Positions 5,672 to 34,600 of a stretch of 64,000 nucleotides of DNA are shown here, one piece after another. Each line of letters begins with the position of its first letter. Position 1 is the first letter of the stretch. This stretch comes from a virus. The notes beneath the pieces are model-generated. The model saw only the letters and a program-made list of their open reading frames with translations. It searched no databases and had not been told where the DNA came from. The stretch is from IMG/VR virus record IMGVR_UViG_3300007345_000027, positions 33,090-97,089 of that record; one strand, written 5' to 3'. The translations under genes and the position numbers were made by a program.

Positions 5672-6106
5672 TTAGATACCTAGTTCGTCTTCTGTGATAA
5701 TTTTAAATTTCCATCGACGATCTTCACAAAATTCTTGAGCAACTTTCCATTTTGCTTGATTTTTTGCCCATTCAGTAACTTCATATATGTAACCTTTAGT
5801 TTTTGTTTTTTTAACTTTAGGTTCAATAGTTTGTTTTTTGGGTTTTATTTCAATCAAATACTTTTGAATCTGTCCATTATTTTCTACAACTTTAATATAA
5901 AAATCTGGAAAGTAACGATGAATTCTGTTATCTAACGGTGATCTATAAGGAAGTGCAAGTTCTTCACTACCCCATTCTAATATTCTTTCATTTTTATCAC
6001 AATAAACCATAAACTTTCTTTCCCATAATGATCTATAAACTATATTTGTAGGATCACCCTTGTATTTCTTGGGATAAGAAGGTTTGTATTTTCCTTTGTA
6101 TGCCAT
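5672..6106 (-). CDS. gp4: head completion nuclease gp4
   Basis: MAYKGKYKP..PKKYKGDPTNIVYRSLWE, HRYFPDF, IEIKP, NQAKW, FKIITE. Confidence 0.93.
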   Translation of the reverse strand: MAYKGKYKPSYPKKYKGDPTNIVYRSLWERKFMVYCDKNERILEWGSEELALPYRSPLDNRIHRYFPDFYIKVVENNGQIQKYLIEIKPKKQTIEPKVKKTKTKGYIYEVTEWAKNQAKWKVAQEFCEDRRWKFKIITEDELGI

Positions 6107-6145: not shown

Positions 6146-6853
6146 ATGAAAGTTCCAGAGATTGGCACTGTAAATATGAGTATGTTGCCAACGTTTTTGA
6201 ATTTATCGAGAACAAATCTATACGAAGTTTTTATTGGAAATTCTTGGGCTTCACCATCAACTACAACATCATTTTTAAAGTTTCTTAGTGATGGTACTCA
6301 ATATGGATCTATCAATTTCAATGAAGATTTTGGTAGAGGTATAGGTCTTCTTTGTACTAATGCAACTTTACCAGCATCTTCATATGCAACTGCAGAAGTA
6401 AAAGATAATTTCATTGGTGTTGGGCAAGAATTTGCACATACTAGAATTAATACTGATATTGACTTCACATTTTATATTGATAGACAATATAAAGTATTAG
6501 GATTTTTTGAAGCATGGATGGATTTTATTTCTGGTGGCGCTGGTGGAGACATGCCACAACAAAACTCAGATCAATCAGCATCAGTTGGTTATTATAGAAG
6601 ATATAACTACCCAAAGTATTATAAAACTAACGGAATTTACATCAAAAAGTTTGAAGCAGACTATGCAAAAGGTGGTGCAACAAACATATCATATCAGTTA
6701 GTTAATGCTTTTCCTAAGTCTATGGCTTCAATACCAGTTGCATATGGTGGTTCTGAAATTATGAAAATAACAGTTACTCTAAACTATGATAGATACATTG
6801 TACGTAGGGAGTTTGCAACCGAATCAATTGATTTGAACGGCAATATTGCATAA
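6146..6853 (+). CDS. tail tube initiator / gp19-family protein (gp54-like)
   Basis: LLCTNATLP, IDFTFYID, FFEAWMDFI, NAFPKS..IPVAYG..IMKITVTLNY are tail-tube-fold motifs. Confidence 0.75.
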   Translation: MKVPEIGTVNMSMLPTFLNLSRTNLYEVFIGNSWASPSTTTSFLKFLSDGTQYGSINFNEDFGRGIGLLCTNATLPASSYATAEVKDNFIGVGQEFAHTRINTDIDFTFYIDRQYKVLGFFEAWMDFISGGAGGDMPQQNSDQSASVGYYRRYNYPKYYKTNGIYIKKFEADYAKGGATNISYQLVNAFPKSMASIPVAYGGSEIMKITVTLNYDRYIVRREFATESIDLNGNIA

Positions 6854-6858
6854 CACCC

Positions 6859-6866
6859 TATAAATA
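6859..6866 (+). promoter_or_regulatory. T4-type late promoter
   Basis: Exact TATAAATA upstream of gp26. Confidence 0.7.
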
Positions 6867-6892: not shown

Positions 6893-7615
6893 ATGCCTTT
6901 ACCTAAGATTAATACGCCATTGTATGAGATGGAAATTCCATCTTCTGGTAAAAAGATTAAGTATAGACCTTTTCTTGTTAGAGAAGAAAAGATTCTAATC
7001 ATGGCATTAGAATCTGAAGATATGAAACAAATTACCAATGCTATTGTACAAATCTTAGGAGATTGTATTAGCACAAGAGGTGTTAAGATAAAAGACTTAT
7101 CAACTTTTGATATTGAATATATTTTCCTCAATGTTAGAGCAAAATCTGTTGGTGAATCAGTTGAAGTAAGTGTTATCTGCCCAGATGATGAAGAAACTCA
7201 AGTTAAAACATCTATTGATATAGATAGCATTTCAGTTCAGAGAAATCCTGACCATGAACAGATTATTAGGTTGGATGATGAACTTTCAATGAAGATGAAG
7301 TATCCTTCCTTGGATCAGTTTGTTGAGAATAATTTTGAATATAATACGGATGATGATAATGTTGACAAATCATTAGACATGATTGTCTCATGTATCGATA
7401 TGGTATATAATAAAGAAGAGTCTTGGTCTGCAAAAGATTGTACTAAGAAAGAGTTGAAGGATTTTGTAGATCAAATGAACACCAGGCAGTTGAAAGAGGT
7501 TGAAAACTTCTTTATAACTATGCCTAAATTGATGCATATTGTTAATGTTACAAATCCGAAAACCAAAGTTGAATCTGAAGTCGTTCTTGAGGGCCTTGCA
7601 AGTTTTTTCACCTGA
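6893..7615 (+). CDS. gp26: baseplate hub assembly protein gp26
   Basis: MPLPKI, YRPFLVREEKIL, FDIEYIFLNVRAKSVGE, CPDD, MKYP, LEGLASFF. Confidence 0.9.
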   Translation: MPLPKINTPLYEMEIPSSGKKIKYRPFLVREEKILIMALESEDMKQITNAIVQILGDCISTRGVKIKDLSTFDIEYIFLNVRAKSVGESVEVSVICPDDEETQVKTSIDIDSISVQRNPDHEQIIRLDDELSMKMKYPSLDQFVENNFEYNTDDDNVDKSLDMIVSCIDMVYNKEESWSAKDCTKKELKDFVDQMNTRQLKEVENFFITMPKLMHIVNVTNPKTKVESEVVLEGLASFFT

Positions 7616-7645
7616 GTATGGCTCATACTAATCTTGAGTCATATT
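7589..7645 (+). promoter_or_regulatory. putative -1 programmed ribosomal frameshift signal
   Basis: SD-like GAGGG 7589-7593, in-frame slippery heptamer T TTT TTC 7603-7609, 5-nt spacer, 11-bp hairpin 7615-7625/7635-7645; the downstream ORF lies in the -1 frame with no intervening stop. Confidence 0.65.
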
Positions 7646-7794
7646 ACCGTGTTAATTTTGCCTTGATGCAGCATCATAAATATAGCTTGACGGAGTTGGA
7701 AAATATGATTCCCTTTGAAAGGGAAATCTATGTTTCGCTTTTACAACAGCATGTTGAAGAAGAAAATCTAAAAGCACAACAAAGTGGAAATTAA
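7618..7794 (+). CDS. gp51: gp51-like baseplate hub assembly catalyst (58 aa; probably the C-terminal extension of a gp26 frameshift product)
   Basis: Not in the ORF track; hand translation MAHTNLESYYRVNFALMQHHKYSLTELENMIPFEREIYVSLLQQHVEEENLKAQQSGN. Confidence 0.8.
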   Translation: MAHTNLESYYRVNFALMQHHKYSLTELENMIPFEREIYVSLLQQHVEEENLKAQQSGN

Positions 7795-10312
7795 CCAAAT
7801 CTATAGAGCACCATCTCTTCCCAAAATTAGTAGAAGAAATATAAATTCTTCTTTAAATCGTGGTGCTTTAGGATCTGGTATAAGTCTTAAAAAAAGTAGT
7901 TTTAGTTTTAAACAACTAACACCAAAAATTACACCTAGTAAATTAGTTTCTGAAAAGAGTGAAAATCAAGAATCACGTGGTATAGTTAAATATATTCAGT
8001 CTAATTTAAATATATTTAAAGTTTTAGAAGAATCTAATAAGTTACTTTCTCAAATTAGAGAGCAGTTAAGTTTAGATTATGATGAAAGGATAAAGGAAAG
8101 AAATGAAAATTTAAGACTATCGAAAAAAAGGATAGCAAAAAATAAAATTAATGAAAAAGAAAAGAGGATAGAAAGTCGGGGTAAATCTTTAATTGGTAGT
8201 GCATTAAATACTGTAATAGCACCTGCTAAAAGTATATTCCAAAGAATTTTAGATTTTCTTTCTATAATAATAACTGGTATAGTACTCAATACTGCCTTTA
8301 AATGGTTATCTGAGAAAGAAAACCAAGAAAAATTACAGCAGTTCTTTAATTTCTTAAAAGATTACTGGAAAGAATTACTAGTAGTTTTTGGTGCAGTAAA
8401 ATTACTTGGATTAGTTAAAAAATTATACAAAATTGGAAGAGGTCTTAGATCTCTCTTTGAAAATAGACTTAAAACACCTAGGGTTCAACCACCAAAATTC
8501 CCTTTAGAAGATCTTTGTGCAAAGCTTCCAAACTGTATCAAAGAACCATCTCCAGAACTGTCATCTGCGTTGGAAGCGCAAATGCAGGCAGCAATTAGTA
8601 AAACAGATTATAAACCTATTTTTACAGGTATTTTTAATGGACTTCTGGGTTTGGGAGCTATTGAAATATTAAGACAACTTATAGAGATTAGTAATCCATT
8701 AACTGCACTTGCCAAAGCTTCTGAATCTAGTGCTTCGGCTTCACCACTAAAACCTAAAGAGACGCCACCGATAGAAGAAGTAACAAAATCCGAACCTACA
8801 CCATTAGAAATAATAAGAAGAAAGGCAATACCAGTAGGAGTTCAAGAATATGTTAATCCTTTACTTAAAAAATATTACAATGATCGTACTATTTTTGGAC
8901 AAACAAAAACACAAAGTGTTCAAACTCCAATGGGTCAATTGATCGTTGAACCAACATCAAAAAATATATTCACTGGGGATGACACACCCAAATTCAGATT
9001 TATAAGCAAAGAAGAACAGGATTATAAAGCTCAACAAACTCAGTTGATGTTAGATAATCCGTGGATTAAAACCTTCTTCGGAGCTCAAACTGCATTAGAT
9101 TATGCAGGTATGATTATGGCTGGAAGACCTGGAAGGGGAGTGAGACCGAAATCTCCTTTTACAAGTCTTAGATCTGCCAACCTAAGCAAATTTAAAGTTG
9201 CTGTTAGAAATCGTTTAGGGCAATTAAAACTTAAACTACCAGATCGTCAGGCAGATAGAGTAGTCATAGCAGCTGAAAAAGAAGTACAATCTCCAGCATT
9301 TCATAGAGCTCTCTTACAACAAAGAGCAAAAGAAGGTAGATTGGTAGTAGATGAAAATGTTGTTCTTGATGAGGTATTAAAACGTCTCATACAGAGAGAA
9401 TTATCTGGAACATCTGGTGGAAATCTTTTTGTTGGAGCACCTAAAGAAGTCAGACAACAGTTAGAGAGAATATATGCAAATAGTCCATCTGAAAAAGTAA
9501 ATGTTCAACCAGAAACCCAATTTAGAAGTATGGGTGGAACAGTATTTGGTTCAGGATCTCAAACAGTTGATAGTGTTCCTGCAATGCTTGCTCCTGGAGA
9601 AGAAGTTATTCGTTCATCAGCAGCAAATCCTTTCCGCCCACTTTTAAAGGATATTAATGATAATGCTGGAAGATTGTGGAAACAATTTACTGAAGCAACT
9701 ATCAACCAAGAAAAAATTAATGCAGTAACTAGAAGATCAAACAGGGTATTTAAAGATTTAATTACTGAATTTACTGAATTGTTTGATGAAGAGAAGCGAG
9801 AAATTTCTAAGAAAAATAGAAAGGAAAGAGCAAAAACAAATCCACCAAGTGGTGATCCACCAAGTGGTGGTGGATCACCAGGATTAAAATCTAAAATTAC
9901 TAGACCGAAAAGATCTAGACCTAAAAAAATGTCTGGACCAAGTATTCCAGCACCAAAATTTGTAAGTCAAAATAAACAATCACCATCAAGATCTCATTTT
10001 TCATCAGTTAATAATAGTATAAGACAACCCGTAACTAATAATATTGCTAAACCAGTAACAAATGTAAAAAATATTGTACAATCTCCTACAAGTACAACTG
10101 TCGTTCCATTTGTTATTGAAAAAGAAACTGGTTCTCCATCTGTTAATGTTGTTAATCTTGCGCCCAAGGTTTTAGATCTTTCTAAAAAATCTACACCAAA
10201 ACCAAGGACTACACAATCAGATGCTACATCTCCAATTCCTTCTATATCACCATTTGATTCTAATAATGACTTTAATTATACAGTCCCAGAAACTTTAGGT
10301 ATCTTGGTGTAA
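7784..10312 (+). CDS. tape-measure-like tail protein
   Basis: Helical, amphipathic N-terminal half; GGTVFGSGSQTVDSVPAMLAPGEEVI motif common in tape measure proteins; follows gp26/gp51; GTG start. Confidence 0.6.
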   Translation: MEINQIYRAPSLPKISRRNINSSLNRGALGSGISLKKSSFSFKQLTPKITPSKLVSEKSENQESRGIVKYIQSNLNIFKVLEESNKLLSQIREQLSLDYDERIKERNENLRLSKKRIAKNKINEKEKRIESRGKSLIGSALNTVIAPAKSIFQRILDFLSIIITGIVLNTAFKWLSEKENQEKLQQFFNFLKDYWKELLVVFGAVKLLGLVKKLYKIGRGLRSLFENRLKTPRVQPPKFPLEDLCAKLPNCIKEPSPELSSALEAQMQAAISKTDYKPIFTGIFNGLLGLGAIEILRQLIEISNPLTALAKASESSASASPLKPKETPPIEEVTKSEPTPLEIIRRKAIPVGVQEYVNPLLKKYYNDRTIFGQTKTQSVQTPMGQLIVEPTSKNIFTGDDTPKFRFISKEEQDYKAQQTQLMLDNPWIKTFFGAQTALDYAGMIMAGRPGRGVRPKSPFTSLRSANLSKFKVAVRNRLGQLKLKLPDRQADRVVIAAEKEVQSPAFHRALLQQRAKEGRLVVDENVVLDEVLKRLIQRELSGTSGGNLFVGAPKEVRQQLERIYANSPSEKVNVQPETQFRSMGGTVFGSGSQTVDSVPAMLAPGEEVIRSSAANPFRPLLKDINDNAGRLWKQFTEATINQEKINAVTRRSNRVFKDLITEFTELFDEEKREISKKNRKERAKTNPPSGDPPSGGGSPGLKSKITRPKRSRPKKMSGPSIPAPKFVSQNKQSPSRSHFSSVNNSIRQPVTNNIAKPVTNVKNIVQSPTSTTVVPFVIEKETGSPSVNVVNLAPKVLDLSKKSTPKPRTTQSDATSPIPSISPFDSNNDFNYTVPETLGILV

Positions 10313-10313
10313 T

Positions 10314-13004
10314 ATGGAAAGTACAAAGAGCGTAAAAAAATTAAAATTTAATATTCTTAATATAAATTCTTTGATTTTTTCAAAAAGAAAAAAAATATCG
10401 AAAATAAAAAAGGATGAAAAAAGATTTAATTTTATTCTTTTAGGTAAATCAAAACGTAAGAAAAAGGAAAACAAAATAGAAGCGGGAGCACAAAAGTCTG
10501 CATTGACTAATATTGCTACAAGATTGGTAGCAAAACCAAAGAGTATGATTGATAAGTTCAAAGAAGTTTTTGGTGTTATTATACTTGGTGTTTTAGTAAA
10601 TAATTTACCAACCCTTTTAAGGGGGTTACAGACTGCATTTACTACAATAAAGAAATTTTTTGAAGATAATCCTTGGTTAGGTCCAGCTATTGCAACAATA
10701 TTTGATATTGTTGTAAAAGGAATGAAAGGAATACTTGATTTAACAAAAGTTTTATTACCAATAATCGGTGGATCATTCCAAGCAGGACTTGATACGATTA
10801 GAGAAGCTGGAAAACTTATTAATGAAACTGATAAGATGTTAAAAGGATTAGATTTTGATATCTTTAATTTAATTAAAAATCCTGATGAAGATGATAAGAT
10901 TAAACAAGAATTGGCAGAGATAGAAGGAAAGTATTATTCAAGCACGACTAAGAAAGTATATGGTAGTTATTCTGAAGCACTTAAAGATCCTGCAGTAAAA
11001 GCTGTTGCTATTAAACCAGTAAAGGTAAAAGCACAACAAAAAATAAAAGCATCGGCTCCTGGTTACGATTCAAACACTGGAACTGTCTTCCTAAAAGATA
11101 AGAGTAAAGTAATCATGGCTCCTTTTCAGGGGAAAATGGGAGTTATGTCTCCTGGAGATAAGACTGGTACTGCAACCACAGCACCAGAATCTTGGCAGGG
11201 AATTGGTGAAGAGAAAGTATGGGATGCAAACGTAGAAAGATATGAATCTCAGCGTGCATACAATGATATACAAAAACTTTCAACTGGAGGAACAGTTACT
11301 GGTCAGAAAATGACAGTTTCTGGTGGATTAACTGGGAAAGCTAAAAGGGCAATCACATCTGTAAATTATTTTTCAAAATTAAAAACAAATACTGAAGAAT
11401 CTAGTAATATATCGAAAGAATATGAAGAAAATAATTCATTATTTAAGACTTTCATGCAGTCTTACAAATCTTTATTGAAACTAAAATATCCTAGAGAGAA
11501 AAGACCAGTAGGACGTTTACCATCCGATTACAAAGCGACTGAGCAACAGGCGTTTAAAGAGGAGGAATTGTGGAATAGAAAGAGGACTATTATTAGTCAA
11601 GATGCAACCGATGAACCTGGATATGAGATTACAGGTCCCAATCCTAATATGATTGCATTATTTGATGGTAAAGTTATACCACGTGGAATTGCTAATGATC
11701 CAGCAGACCCTGGATGGGACAAAGATCCTAGTAAAAAACGTGGATACGGAAATCATGTAATTATACGAAGTGAAGATCCAAATAATCCAGGAACTTATTT
11801 TGATGCACTATATGCCCATTTTCCTACAGGAGAACTGAAAGTTAAAGATGGGGATACTATTACTGCGGGACAAGTTTTAGGTAGAAAAGCAACAAGACAA
11901 GAATATCTAGATAAACCAAGAGAAGTTGGTAGTGGGACTGGACCACACCAGAGCGTTGATTTTTTCAAGGAAGGTGGACCTTATACTACTAAAGCAGGTG
12001 CATATCCTGGTTGGGCACGATTAAGACCATTAATAACAACTCAATTATTAGGTGGAGGTGGTCCTGGTCCTAATCAATTGAAACAAGGTGATATTATTGC
12101 TACTAATGCAAAAACATCTTATTATGATCCATCTTTGGGTGGAATTAATGCAAGTGGATATAAAACACCAGATGGATTACCAGCAACTTCTTCTGGTGAA
12201 GGTTATCGACCAGAATTATTTACTGCTGCAGCATTCCCAGAATTTTTGGCAAAACTTCCAAAATCTATGACTTATAGAGCAGATCCCAGATATATGCCTG
12301 GTGGTAGAACTTTATCTAGGGGTCAGGCTTTCAATGTTATCGTGACAAATACTAGAACAAATAAAACTGCAGTTGTACGTGTAAATGATGCAGGTTCTGG
12401 AGTACCAGGACACTCTAAAAATCATATGTTAGATTTTAGTGTTGCCACAAAAGATTATCTTGGAACTGGTGATGGCAATTACACTATTAAAATGGGATCA
12501 CCAACGATGAAACCAGGTCCATATAAATTAGAACCACCAAAACCAAAAACCAATTTACAGATAAGTGAAAATATCAAAAAAATGATATTAAGTATTGGAA
12601 AGGGTAATAATATGATATTTGGACAAGAAAATATAAATGTTGAAATAGATAGTAGTGGTAAACTCATAATCAAAGATACTAGAGGTGCATTTGGAACTGG
12701 ATTATTTCCAACTGAATATGAAACCACCAATGAAAAAAATAAAAAACTTTTGTTAAAAATTGAAAAATTGTTGGAACAGAGAATAAAAAACAATCAACAG
12801 ATAAGACCACAGCAAGGAATATCACCAGCTACTCCTGGATATGGTGGTGGTGATTCTGCATCAATAACTATATTGAAAGAAACAACCGTAGCTGTGGTTT
12901 CTGGTCCAACTGAAATTGTTGAAGTTCCTGTACAACAAGTTGTTCCATTTGTTATCACACCAAAGTCAGGATCTGGATTACGTAATAGATCCCTAATCTC
13001 TTAA
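10314..13004 (+). CDS. tail-associated protein with M23-peptidase-like and RlpA-like double-psi beta-barrel domains
   Basis: GYGNHVII...LYAHF...V..GD.I.AGQVLG...GTGPH (M23-like); TSYY...ATSSGE...TAA...VIVTN...VVRVND...MLDFS (RlpA/DPBB); N-terminus resembles the preceding gene. Confidence 0.7.
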   Translation: MESTKSVKKLKFNILNINSLIFSKRKKISKIKKDEKRFNFILLGKSKRKKKENKIEAGAQKSALTNIATRLVAKPKSMIDKFKEVFGVIILGVLVNNLPTLLRGLQTAFTTIKKFFEDNPWLGPAIATIFDIVVKGMKGILDLTKVLLPIIGGSFQAGLDTIREAGKLINETDKMLKGLDFDIFNLIKNPDEDDKIKQELAEIEGKYYSSTTKKVYGSYSEALKDPAVKAVAIKPVKVKAQQKIKASAPGYDSNTGTVFLKDKSKVIMAPFQGKMGVMSPGDKTGTATTAPESWQGIGEEKVWDANVERYESQRAYNDIQKLSTGGTVTGQKMTVSGGLTGKAKRAITSVNYFSKLKTNTEESSNISKEYEENNSLFKTFMQSYKSLLKLKYPREKRPVGRLPSDYKATEQQAFKEEELWNRKRTIISQDATDEPGYEITGPNPNMIALFDGKVIPRGIANDPADPGWDKDPSKKRGYGNHVIIRSEDPNNPGTYFDALYAHFPTGELKVKDGDTITAGQVLGRKATRQEYLDKPREVGSGTGPHQSVDFFKEGGPYTTKAGAYPGWARLRPLITTQLLGGGGPGPNQLKQGDIIATNAKTSYYDPSLGGINASGYKTPDGLPATSSGEGYRPELFTAAAFPEFLAKLPKSMTYRADPRYMPGGRTLSRGQAFNVIVTNTRTNKTAVVRVNDAGSGVPGHSKNHMLDFSVATKDYLGTGDGNYTIKMGSPTMKPGPYKLEPPKPKTNLQISENIKKMILSIGKGNNMIFGQENINVEIDSSGKLIIKDTRGAFGTGLFPTEYETTNEKNKKLLLKIEKLLEQRIKNNQQIRPQQGISPATPGYGGGDSASITILKETTVAVVSGPTEIVEVPVQQVVPFVITPKSGSGLRNRSLIS

Positions 13005-31612: not shown

Positions 31613-34600
31613 ATGAATAATGATATCTTAAAAATACCTCACATTGAGGACGATGAAGATTTTTTAAATTATAAAAATACTTTAGAAAAAGAACCTGAAG
31701 GTGATGTTAAAAAAAGGTATTGTATTGGATGTTATACACCAGAAGATTGGCAATATATTCATGAAGAATTGATGAGAGATGGAAGTTTAGATGATAATAT
31801 TCCATCAGATTGTTGTGATTGTGTTGATCAAAAACTCCACAGTGAAACAAGAGCTATTTACTTATTAACTGATTCGGAAGCTATAGCACTAAAAGAACAT
31901 CCTAGAGTAAAATATGTCAATGTTGATACGCAGTTTTATAGAGGAACATATTTGGTAAATCCCAAAAATGTGGAATTTTCTTACAGATGGAATCACGGTG
32001 CAAAGCATTATAGAGGAGATACTACTTGGTTGTATGGTCAATTGTCATCTAGAACTAATATAGGTGAGGACACTGGAAGAACTGGATATCAATTGTACAG
32101 GATGTCTCAGAAAGAGGATCCTTGGATAAATGAATCTAAGGGTATTACATTTGCCACGGCATCAAATTTTGGTAATATATCAAATTATTCTACAAATTCA
32201 CATCAAAACAACCAAATAAACGAAAATAATGGAACTGGTAGAGACGTTGATCTCGTAGTTGGTGATAATCAATGTTGGTTTGGTCATGCAGAATTCCAAG
32301 ACTTTCGTACATTTCAATCGACACCAGTACCTCAAGGTTATTGGCCATATGGACCATATGATTGGGATGGTGGTAATGTCTTAAACAGTAATTTTTCTGC
32401 AAGTGCTAGTAATGGATCATGTCAATTATTAGACTTAGTTTTGGAAGCACCATATTATCTAGATCCAACTTATTTTGAAGCTGATCCTAATAATAGATTA
32501 GAGACTAGATGGGATGGAACTACTGTACCCGTAGAACAAGTCGCAAAATCGTGGTGGGGAAATGTTAACAGTAGAAGTAGTACTACAATTTTAGGGGGAG
32601 CAGTTATTTCAATTCCATCCTCATATACGAGAGCTAATTGTAATGGTACATTTCAAAATAGAAATGTACCCCAAATTCCTAGTAGTGCATCTCATGGCAC
32701 ATCTTGTGCATCACAAGCATATGGTAAATGGCATGGATGGGCATATAATGCAAATAAGTGGTATGTAGATGTGTATAGTACCTATGGTCTTGGATTTGAA
32801 AATTATTTTGATATGTTGAAATTATTTCATTTATATAAACCAAATAGAACATCTGATGATTCAAAAAATCCAACCGTTTCCAGCAATAGTTGGGGTTTTA
32901 GACTTCCATTATCAGCACTGCTTACTGGTTATTATTATTTTAGATCGGGAACTTTGGGTGGTGGAGGACAACAATATGATATTGATGATGGATCAGGAAG
33001 TGTAGATTGGGGAGCAAGTCCCAGATTTCTAACCCATTTCACAGAACCAAATACTCTTTTTCAATGTGAAATGGTAGATAATTCTGAATCTCAAGCAGGT
33101 GAAGAACTTATTGATTCTGGAGTAATCTTTGTACATGCTTCAGGGAATGAAAATCAAAAAATGGTGAAATCAGAACACCCAGATTATAATAATTACATCT
33201 ACCCAACTGCAAATCAAACATTGGCTCAATCTATTGCACAATATGGGGGGCGTAATTATACTCTTACTGTTAATAGAAAAGGGTTTCCTGGACAGATAGG
33301 AAAAGTGAACAATAATGATGGTAGTGTTACTTACAGAACAATTTGTATTGGAGCTTTAGATTCTAACTATGATAATGAAGGTAGAGAAAGAAAAGTATAC
33401 TATAGTAATATGGGAAATGCGGTAGACGCATATGCACCAGGTGAATTAACTATTGCAGCAACAGCACAGGATGGTGCTATTAGTGGTTATTCTTTTTTAT
33501 ATGAAAGGCATCCTGGTACAGCTTATTCTTATGATGGGAATAATCTTTCTGAAATTTCATATGATAATTCATTTACTGGTAGTAGTTCAGCATGTCCACT
33601 AGCAGCTGGTTTAATTGCAACTGTACTGGAACAAAATAGAGGATGGAATTATTCAAGTGTTCTTTTGTATATTTCAAATAATGTTGGAACACAATCATCT
33701 ATTCAGTTTTACAGTGGTTCTGAGTCTACACAATATGATGATCAAAATTTTACCGATCTTCATTCTATAGAGGGTGGTTCACCAACAATACTCTGGAACG
33801 CTCCACTTGCAGGTTCAGTACCTGATGCACAAAATTATTACTCGGATGAAGGAGAATTAACAGATCACTTTATTACTGAAAAATGGTTTATAGATCAATA
33901 TATTGGTGATAGATTAGTTACTACTGGTGATAATGCTTTGGGGCAATTAGGTAATGGATCATCTACAACTGATTTTGGATCATTTTATTATCATTATGAT
34001 GTTAATACTCAAGCAAAGGATAGTTGGAAAGATGTTAAATGTGGAGGATATCACACACTAGCAGTAACTAGAGAAGGAGTTTTGTATAGTTGGGGAGCAG
34101 ACAGTGATGGGCAGTTGGGTGATGGTAATGCTGGTGGTGCTATTACTGTACCAAACTCAACAGCTTTAGGTACTCAATTTACTCGTATAAAAATTATATC
34201 TGCTGGATTACAACATTCTGCATTGATATCTACACAAAAGATTTTATATACTTGGGGTGCTAATGGGGCTGGACAATTAGGTAATGGAAGTAATACTTCT
34301 ACATCCACACCAACACCTGTTAATTTTGATGTTGATTGGGTTCAAGTTTCTGGGAAAGGATTTCATACTATGGCAATTAAAGATAATGGCACTCTTTGGG
34401 CTACTGGGAACAATACTTATGGGCAACTTGGATTGGGTGATACTTCAGATAGAAACACCTTTACTCAAGTTGGAACTGATGAAGATTGGTTAACAGTATC
34501 AGCAGGAAGAAATCATACATTAGCACTTAAAAAGGATGGAACATTGTGGGCATGGGGTGGAAATTATCTTACTAATGGTAATGTTTCTGGTAGAGAAGGA

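Follow-up and report, generated by a model that had tools for sequence, protein, structure and literature searches.

The gp26-like gene in a 64,000-nt stretch of T4-like cyanophage DNA (positions 33,090 to 97,089 of the IMG/VR virus record IMGVR_UViG_3300007345_000027; hereafter the window) and the 58-aa 'gp51' open reading frame (ORF) behind it are most probably one recoded gene for a tail (baseplate-hub) assembly chaperone, from which a short and a long form would be made by -1 slippage on the heptamer T TTT TTC. The source record is a 97-kb fragment of an uncultured phage with an estimated completeness of 46%. The records closest to the window, Marine virus AG-345-L05 and Prochlorococcus phage P-SSM2, share about 70-72% nucleotide identity with it. 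We infer the slip itself, its ribosomal nature, its efficiency, the stimulatory roles of the flanking elements and the chaperone function of the products from the comparisons described below.

Predicted recoding signal at the end of the gp26-like gene

The 3'-end of the gp26-like ORF reads AGT (7601-7603) TTT TTC ACC TGA (7613-7615), and the elements of the predicted signal are arranged around it as listed here.

6893-7615, + strand: gp26-like ORF of 240 aa, short form (TAC-N) of the putative tail assembly chaperone (TAC); match to PF12322 (T4_baseplate) with E 3.4e-69
7589-7593, + strand: Shine-Dalgarno (SD)-like GAGGG, separated by 9 nt from the heptamer; GGAGGG in most close relatives
7603-7609, + strand: slippery heptamer T TTT TTC, in frame and in X XXY YYZ phase
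7609-7794, + strand: -1 frame C-terminal extension of 61 codons, which includes the 58-aa 'gp51' ORF (7618-7794)
7613-7615, + strand: zero-frame stop codon TGA, one codon past the heptamer
7615-7645, + strand: hairpin of 11 bp (two G-U pairs) with a 9-nt loop, 7615-7625 pairing with 7635-7645, starting 5 nt past the heptamer

The majority of ribosomes would read AGT TTT TTC ACC and terminate at the TGA at 7613, which would give the 240-aa short form. In a minority, tRNA-Phe in the P and A sites would move back by one base on T TTT TTC, and these ribosomes would continue with CAC CTG AGT ATG GCT through position 7794 and produce a long form of 300 aa (TAC-NC; 6893-7609 joined to 7609-7794). The -1 frame, TTT TTT CAC CTG AGT ATG GCT, leads into the 58-aa ORF; the predicted fusion junction reads ...GLASFFHLSMAHTNLESYYR and the predicted fusion peptide across it reads ...LEGLASFFHLSMAHTNLESYYR. 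The slip would probably be aided by the GAGGG element 9 nt upstream, by the hairpin 5 nt downstream and by the nearby zero-frame stop codon. The short form would be the counterpart of T4 gp26 and the long form that of T4 gp51 and, by analogy with the lambda G/GT proteins, both would act as chaperones for the tape measure protein, the product of the next gene, without staying in the virion.

A preliminary description of this locus, made from the letters of the window, had given positions for the heptamer, the GAGGG element and the hairpin, the reading of the ORF end and of the -1 frame and product sizes of 240 and about 300 aa, and all of these proved correct on recheck. The ATG of the 58-aa ORF (7618-7620) sits inside the hairpin, for which a folding energy of -12.5 kcal/mol and a z-score of -2.75 relative to dinucleotide shuffles were calculated. 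No usable SD sequence was found before this ATG, the sole GAG being located 1 nt from it, in agreement with the earlier statement that the ORF has no suitably spaced SD of its own. A scan of positions 7400-7900 against Rfam returned no family. The sequence TTTTTTC occurs 45 times in the window with 37 copies expected, so that a single heptamer is within chance in such AT-rich DNA, and its significance therefore comes from its conservation among relatives.

Conservation of the junction among relatives

Relatives were gathered by four protein queries against IMG/VR, and annotated phages were added from GenBank. The pooled set comprised 249 loci with a complete junction, corresponding to 196 unique junctions of 150 nt, and reached down to about 34% protein identity; its gp26 proteins formed 33 clusters at 60% identity and 14 clusters at 50% identity. 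The small domain was located in the -1 frame, together with an in-frame T TTT TTY, in 170 of 170 and then in 79 of 79 loci holding both parts. The preliminary description had proposed a survey for T-TTT-TTY and the -1 phase, and NNT TTT TTY was kept in all 249 complete junctions.

Within the 196 unique junctions, the codon before the two Phe codons always ended in T, with a varying residue (Ser in 126, Asp in 40, Ala in 18 and Asn in 11), and the first Phe codon was always TTT. The third-position entropy was accordingly zero at these two constrained codons and 1.2-1.9 bits at the neighbouring codons. Phe-Phe sites elsewhere in the same genes were encoded by TTC TTT in 71 of 123 cases. The last base of the heptamer was C in 91% of the junctions, against the codon bias. 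These comparisons place the conservation of the signal far beyond the level set by codon bias and conserved residues, and a conservative estimate gave P values of about 4e-4 over the 14 clusters (50% identity) and 8e-9 over the 33 clusters.

The site was also kept in such distant phages as pelagiphage Mosig, Caulobacter phage Cr30, Aeromonas phage PX29, Stenotrophomonas phage Marzo and Rhizobium phage IG49. In Pseudoalteromonas phage vB_Psh_XG4 (PP712099.1, unannotated; locus L175, 2140-2330) the same junction reads CGT TTT TTA, i.e. a T TTT TTA heptamer with a Leu codon in place of Phe in the A site. The distance from the heptamer to the zero-frame stop codon was one codon in 166 of the 196 junctions, eight codons in 16, none in 13 and two codons in one. 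The 13 junctions in which the stop codon abuts the heptamer (loci L111, L113, L115, L119, L124, L127 and others) read T TTT TTT TAA or TAG; all of them have T at the last heptamer position, and a slip would take place there with a stop codon beside the A-site codon.

Start codons, flanking elements and alternative explanations

The conserved peptide of the small domain begins right after Phe-Phe (R-I/V-A-L-S-H-x-x-L-E...). No ATG, GTG or TTG precedes the conserved His in the -1 frame of 95 of the 196 junctions and, since the peptide is conserved nevertheless, its N-terminal part can be expressed in these phages only by entry from the gp26 frame. Among the sequence comparisons, these missing start codons are the strongest single argument for a frameshift. 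In phages Mosig (locus L082, 2262-2396) and IG49 (locus L174, 1884-2024) the annotated ORFs ('hub assembly catalyst' or hypothetical) begin at an internal Met of the domain, and the annotated starts drop 14-20 conserved residues that are readable only from the gp26 frame. An ATG before the conserved His was present in 100 of the 196 junctions and also in the window; in all 80 loci closest to it the ATG is located 2 nt past the stop codon, as in the window itself. The position of the Met encoded in the window is occupied by Leu (CTN or TTA) in pelagiphage-like clades and by Met (ATG) in cyanophage clades (115 Leu versus 78 Met). In the window clade, the ATG may simply encode a residue, contribute to the hairpin or provide an additional site of reinitiation.

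Elements reminiscent of stimulators were enriched on both sides of the heptamer. An SD-core match of at least 4 nt was found in 94% of the 196 junctions compared to 40% of the control windows, mostly at a distance of 8-10 nt from the heptamer, and the Glu codon at this site was GAG rather than GAA in a ratio of 112:34 compared to 1431:3207 in the background. Folding of the downstream region averaged -9.8 kcal/mol compared to -5.8 kcal/mol for synonymous-codon shuffles, against which z-scores of -3 to -4 were obtained for the window clade. The register of the downstream stems differs between clades. In a sub-clade with ATG TCA CAT (loci L052, L053, L055, L056 and L070) the proximal hairpin is broken, and another, perfect 9-bp hairpin (AGUCUUGAA...UUCAAGACU) is located about 20 nt past the heptamer.

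The long form would also arise if RNA polymerase occasionally added one U on the run of six T: a single extra base has the same effect on the protein as a -1 shift, and a subpopulation of the mRNA would then encode the fusion in one frame. The title of the paper by Vladimirov, Gautam and Davidson (Virology 2022;566:9-15; PMID 34826709) can be read in this sense; PRFect (PMC10885494) takes it to mean separate genes. The conserved element is indeed a homopolymer run, the invariant T before the Phe codons would in this case just hold the run at six, and the C at the end of the heptamer could follow from the -1 frame, in which a conserved Arg, Gln or His codon begins at this base. Slippage of bacterial RNA polymerase, however, generally requires runs of about 8-9 nt or more and selection for it would favour longer runs, whereas the run consists of exactly six T in 91% of the junctions, against the codon bias, and the preceding T is kept in 17 of the 17 junctions with TTT TTT. 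The SD-like element, enriched 8-10 nt upstream, and the enriched hairpins, 5-7 nt downstream, are moreover known as stimulators of ribosomal frameshifting only, and from the sequences these flanking elements favour ribosomal over transcriptional slippage, which appears quite improbable as the source of the long form.

Several observations weigh against a recoded gene. The genomes have a strong bias towards T-ending codons (TTT 71-78%, AGT 87%, GAT 80%), and this bias together with the kinship of the sequences makes Fisher p-values overstate the significance of the conserved heptamer. Re-pairing in the A site from UUC to UUU is not an especially favourable slip. The covariation of the hairpin expected in the preliminary description was found to be weak: pairing was maintained in 86.7% of the cells in 37 sequences of the clade, but compensatory changes were limited to two pairs with marginal shuffle controls, and other clades have a different stem or none. 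A proven conserved hairpin structure is therefore not claimed. Some clades lack the hairpin and the SD-like element, which are, as judged from the sequences, clade features and not universal ones. The ATG located 2 nt past the stop codon in the window clade makes a free 58-aa protein possible by termination-reinitiation. Finally, Vibrio phage D531 (OZ195936.1; locus L173, 1738-1990), the sole relative found without the heptamer, reads TCA CTT TTC AAG TAA TGG; the -1 phase of its C-domain ORF is retained, but this ORF begins at an ATG that overlaps the stop codon. Without heptamer but with an ATG of its own, D531 suggests that the two parts can work as separate proteins. In the D531 record the C-domain ORF is unannotated, and a 35-aa hypothetical protein is listed elsewhere.

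Taken to the extreme, these last two points would mean that there are only two separate proteins and no fusion, the 58-aa ORF being translated by termination-reinitiation at TGA-GT-ATG. This is what the GenBank/RefSeq annotation implies: every annotated record lists two genes, and all 405 matched records of cyanophages and related phages give a 'baseplate hub' gene and then a separate 'baseplate hub assembly catalyst' or hypothetical gene of 58-120 aa. The position of the ATG in the window and its closest loci and its presence before the His in about half of the junctions agree with it as well, and initiation without an SD sequence is frequent in marine picocyanobacteria. Two independent genes would, on the other hand, leave the conservation of the heptamer unexplained and, in 95 of the 196 junctions, the conserved N-terminal portion of the domain without a start codon; the annotated ATG of Mosig truncates the domain, the ATG of the window is buried in a hairpin, and T4 gp51 indicates that the fused architecture is the functional one. 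Separate proteins alone are for these reasons highly improbable.

Both modes could operate in the cyanophage clade, where a free 58-aa C-domain would be made by reinitiation at an ATG acquired by the clade, in addition to the short form and the frameshifted long form. The Met codon that replaces Leu in these phages would fit such a third product, as would its location 2 nt past the stop codon, where the terminating ribosome would have melted the hairpin already, and D531 is evidence that the C-domain can function when free. Replacement of Leu by Met is conservative, however, and the location of the ATG within the hairpin stem could alone account for its conservation; three products are rather unlikely. 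It can further be speculated, at rather long odds, that the dnaX-like tripartite signal, the adjacent stop codon and the clade-specific ATG of the cyanophages together serve to make three products, a system that would go beyond the model published for gp26/gp51, and that D531-type phages, which would have lost the heptamer and would make the C-domain in free form only, represent the end point of this trend.

Products, neighbouring genes and related systems

The identity of the products was analysed by mapping their coverage on the phrog_150 profile, which has 282 positions.

T4 gp51: phrog_150 positions 13-280
T4 gp26: phrog_150 positions 14-235
Window gp26: phrog_150 positions 5-233
Window small ORF: phrog_150 positions 239-280

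T4 gp51 and T4 gp26 have the N domain in common (E 2e-6), and the small ORF of the window matches the C-terminus of T4 gp51 (residues 211-246; E 6e-6). The conceptual 300-aa fusion could be aligned collinearly with T4 gp51 across the junction using MAFFT, an alignment that the preliminary description had put forward as a check. Its account of T4 gp51 as a gp26-like domain with a C-terminal segment resembling the small ORF was borne out by this alignment and by the phrog_150 coverage. T4 gp26, which ends in ...RGLKEFFELL, keeps the G-L-x-x-F-F motif. The gp26-like ORF of the window scored 233 bits with PF12322 (cut-off 24.5), and the C-terminal extension matched phrog_634 'baseplate hub assembly catalyst' with E 9e-28.

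Among the best 150 cluster representatives of 4,685 homologues, 148 proteins stop at the junction. Fused proteins from the protein database (P0001, P0006, P0017, P0029, P0056 and P0064) were considered as natural in-frame fusions and set aside; all are singletons and probably represent indel errors of assembly within the T run or rare variants. Five of them (P0029, P0056, P0006, P0017 and P0064) are in-frame fused forms of about 300 aa, and the sequence of P0001 is garbled upstream of the junction. A locus 95% identical to P0029 (L177) has GCT TTT TTC and the -1 arrangement.

The fused relative P0029 was modelled with AlphaFold (pLDDT 89.7, pTM 0.76), and the model consists of an alpha/beta N domain, a low-confidence or disordered linker at the junction (residues 236-243) and a helical C domain. 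Exhaustive comparison of model residues 1-90 with 48,161 chains by VIA-align gave as top match the tail assembly chaperone of HK97 (2ob9; Z 7.6, rmsd 4.1, 84 aligned residues), followed by 3fgx (rbstp2171; Z 7.4) and 3klu (YqbN; Z 7.1), all with Z-scores below 8 and for a relative's protein instead of that of the window. A Foldseek search of the PDB with the P0029 model returned no match at E 0.001 or better (2ob9 only at E 1.9), and a sequence-profile search of the PDB was likewise without a match better than E 0.37. A chaperone-like fold of the N-terminal domain is supported by the model.

The gene order along the window is tube-fold gene (PF23849), gp26, C-extension and a weakly tape-measure-like gene, and the flanking features are the following.

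6146-6853, + strand: tail-tube-fold gene, gp54-like tube initiator; PF23849 (Phage_TTP_2) E 4e-19, phrog_45 'tail tube' E 3.6e-31
6859-6866, + strand: TATAAATA, in agreement with the consensus for T4-type late promoters; located 26 nt before the ATG of gp26
7784-10312, + strand: tape-measure-like gene of 842 aa; weak matches to phrog_25241 (E 3e-6) and phrog_934 'tail length tape measure protein' (E 6e-3)

The tube-fold gene is of the gp54 initiator type and does not encode the major tube protein; the gene upstream of gp26 at the equivalent position is annotated as gp54 or tail tube in PX29, Mosig and IG49. The TATAAATA element, which we take to be a promoter because of the established T4 late promoter consensus, occurs three times in the window compared to 8.9 occurrences predicted by shuffles, and this depletion fits a late-promoter signal that is kept out of other places. 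The preliminary description had called the gene after gp26 and the small ORF tape-measure-like, and this designation stands on weak matches: the 842-aa protein has no match in Pfam or NCBIfam, and in Cr30 a tape measure is annotated at the equivalent position. No NCBIfam model matched any of the five neighbouring proteins. A single PF12322 match was found in the record of the window, a 97-kb fragment that is about 46% complete.

An 896-aa protein is encoded after the tape-measure-like gene (10314-13004), with a Peptidase_M23 match below threshold (E 2.5e-4; 21.6 bits with a cut-off of 28.7) and no match in PHROG; it may be a tail-associated cell-wall hydrolase. On the minus strand, positions 5672-6106 encode a 144-aa protein that matches PHROG 'head closure' (phrog_218, E 1.6e-59) and also the N-terminal domain of TnsA-like endonucleases (PF08722, E 3e-24).

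The preliminary description knew of no report of such recoding in T4-like cyanophages, and in this respect it has to be corrected. Vladimirov et al. (2022) are reported to have identified the tail assembly chaperones of T4-like phages (TAC-N/TAC-NC) as gp26/gp51; the Adele paper (PMC12846349) credits this work with the description of poly-T slippery sequences that end the short-form genes of T4-like phages, and PRFect (PMC10885494), citing it, states that in some T4-like phages, T4 included, frameshifting is replaced by two genes, a short one and a long fused one. This is enough to conclude that the central idea for T4-like phages was published in 2022, and the finding in the window is therefore an annotation gap and not a discovery. 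The TACs treated there belong to the same family (PF12322, phrog_150/634) and have the same short/long logic and the same poly-T site as the window, with no essential difference apparent.

For T4 itself, Leiman et al. 2010 (PMC3004832) give both gp26 and gp51 the designation of hub assembly chaperones and report gp51 as needed for assembly but absent from the virion. The short form of the window is homologous to T4 gp26 (208 aa) and its conceptual long form to T4 gp51 (249 aa); the two T4 proteins are encoded by two divergently transcribed paralogues of about 20% identity without recoding, whereas the window would use one recoded gene.

The window resembles the lambda G/GT system in that a -1 slip on a heptamer close to the 3'-end of the first ORF would give two products with a common N-terminus; the lambda pair is flanked by a tube-fold gene and the tape measure gene, and the downstream gene of the window is weakly tape-measure-like. 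The equivalence to G/GT proposed in the preliminary description fits as an analogy, based on synteny and on the structural matches of the N domain to three solved chaperones. The short form of the window is, with 240 aa, much larger than the lambda G type, with an additional alpha/beta region that follows the 90 chaperone-like residues; its heptamer is T TTT TTC and not G GGA AAG, and no sequence similarity to proteins of the G/GT type was detectable. A role in hub and tail assembly is putative here. A conserved -1 frameshift in tail chaperone genes, lambda G/GT among them, is said to go back to Levin, Hendrix and Casjens in 1993 and to Xu, Hendrix and Duda in 2004. The E/E+E' pair of phage P2, attributed to Christie et al. 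(2002, J Bacteriol 184:6522), is likewise a tail chaperone pair of a myovirus with a -1 slip on a T run just upstream of the tape measure gene. It belongs to another protein family and has another last heptamer base, the P2 heptamer being T TTT TTG. The tripartite layout of Escherichia coli dnaX is also similar, with an SD-like element about 10 nt upstream, the heptamer, a hairpin 5-6 nt downstream and a stop codon close by. There, however, the heptamer is A AAA AAG and the shifted frame ends at once, which gives a shorter product, whereas the shift in the window would extend the protein.

For the published idea of recoded chaperone genes in T4-like phages, the survey adds quantitative support, the missing start codons in half of the junctions, the SD-like element at 8-10 nt, the hairpins that differ by clade, and the variants with T TTT TTA or without the heptamer. 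With one recoded chaperone gene, the truncated appearance of 'gp51' outside the T4 group would be accounted for, and recognizing the gene as such would correct thousands of records.

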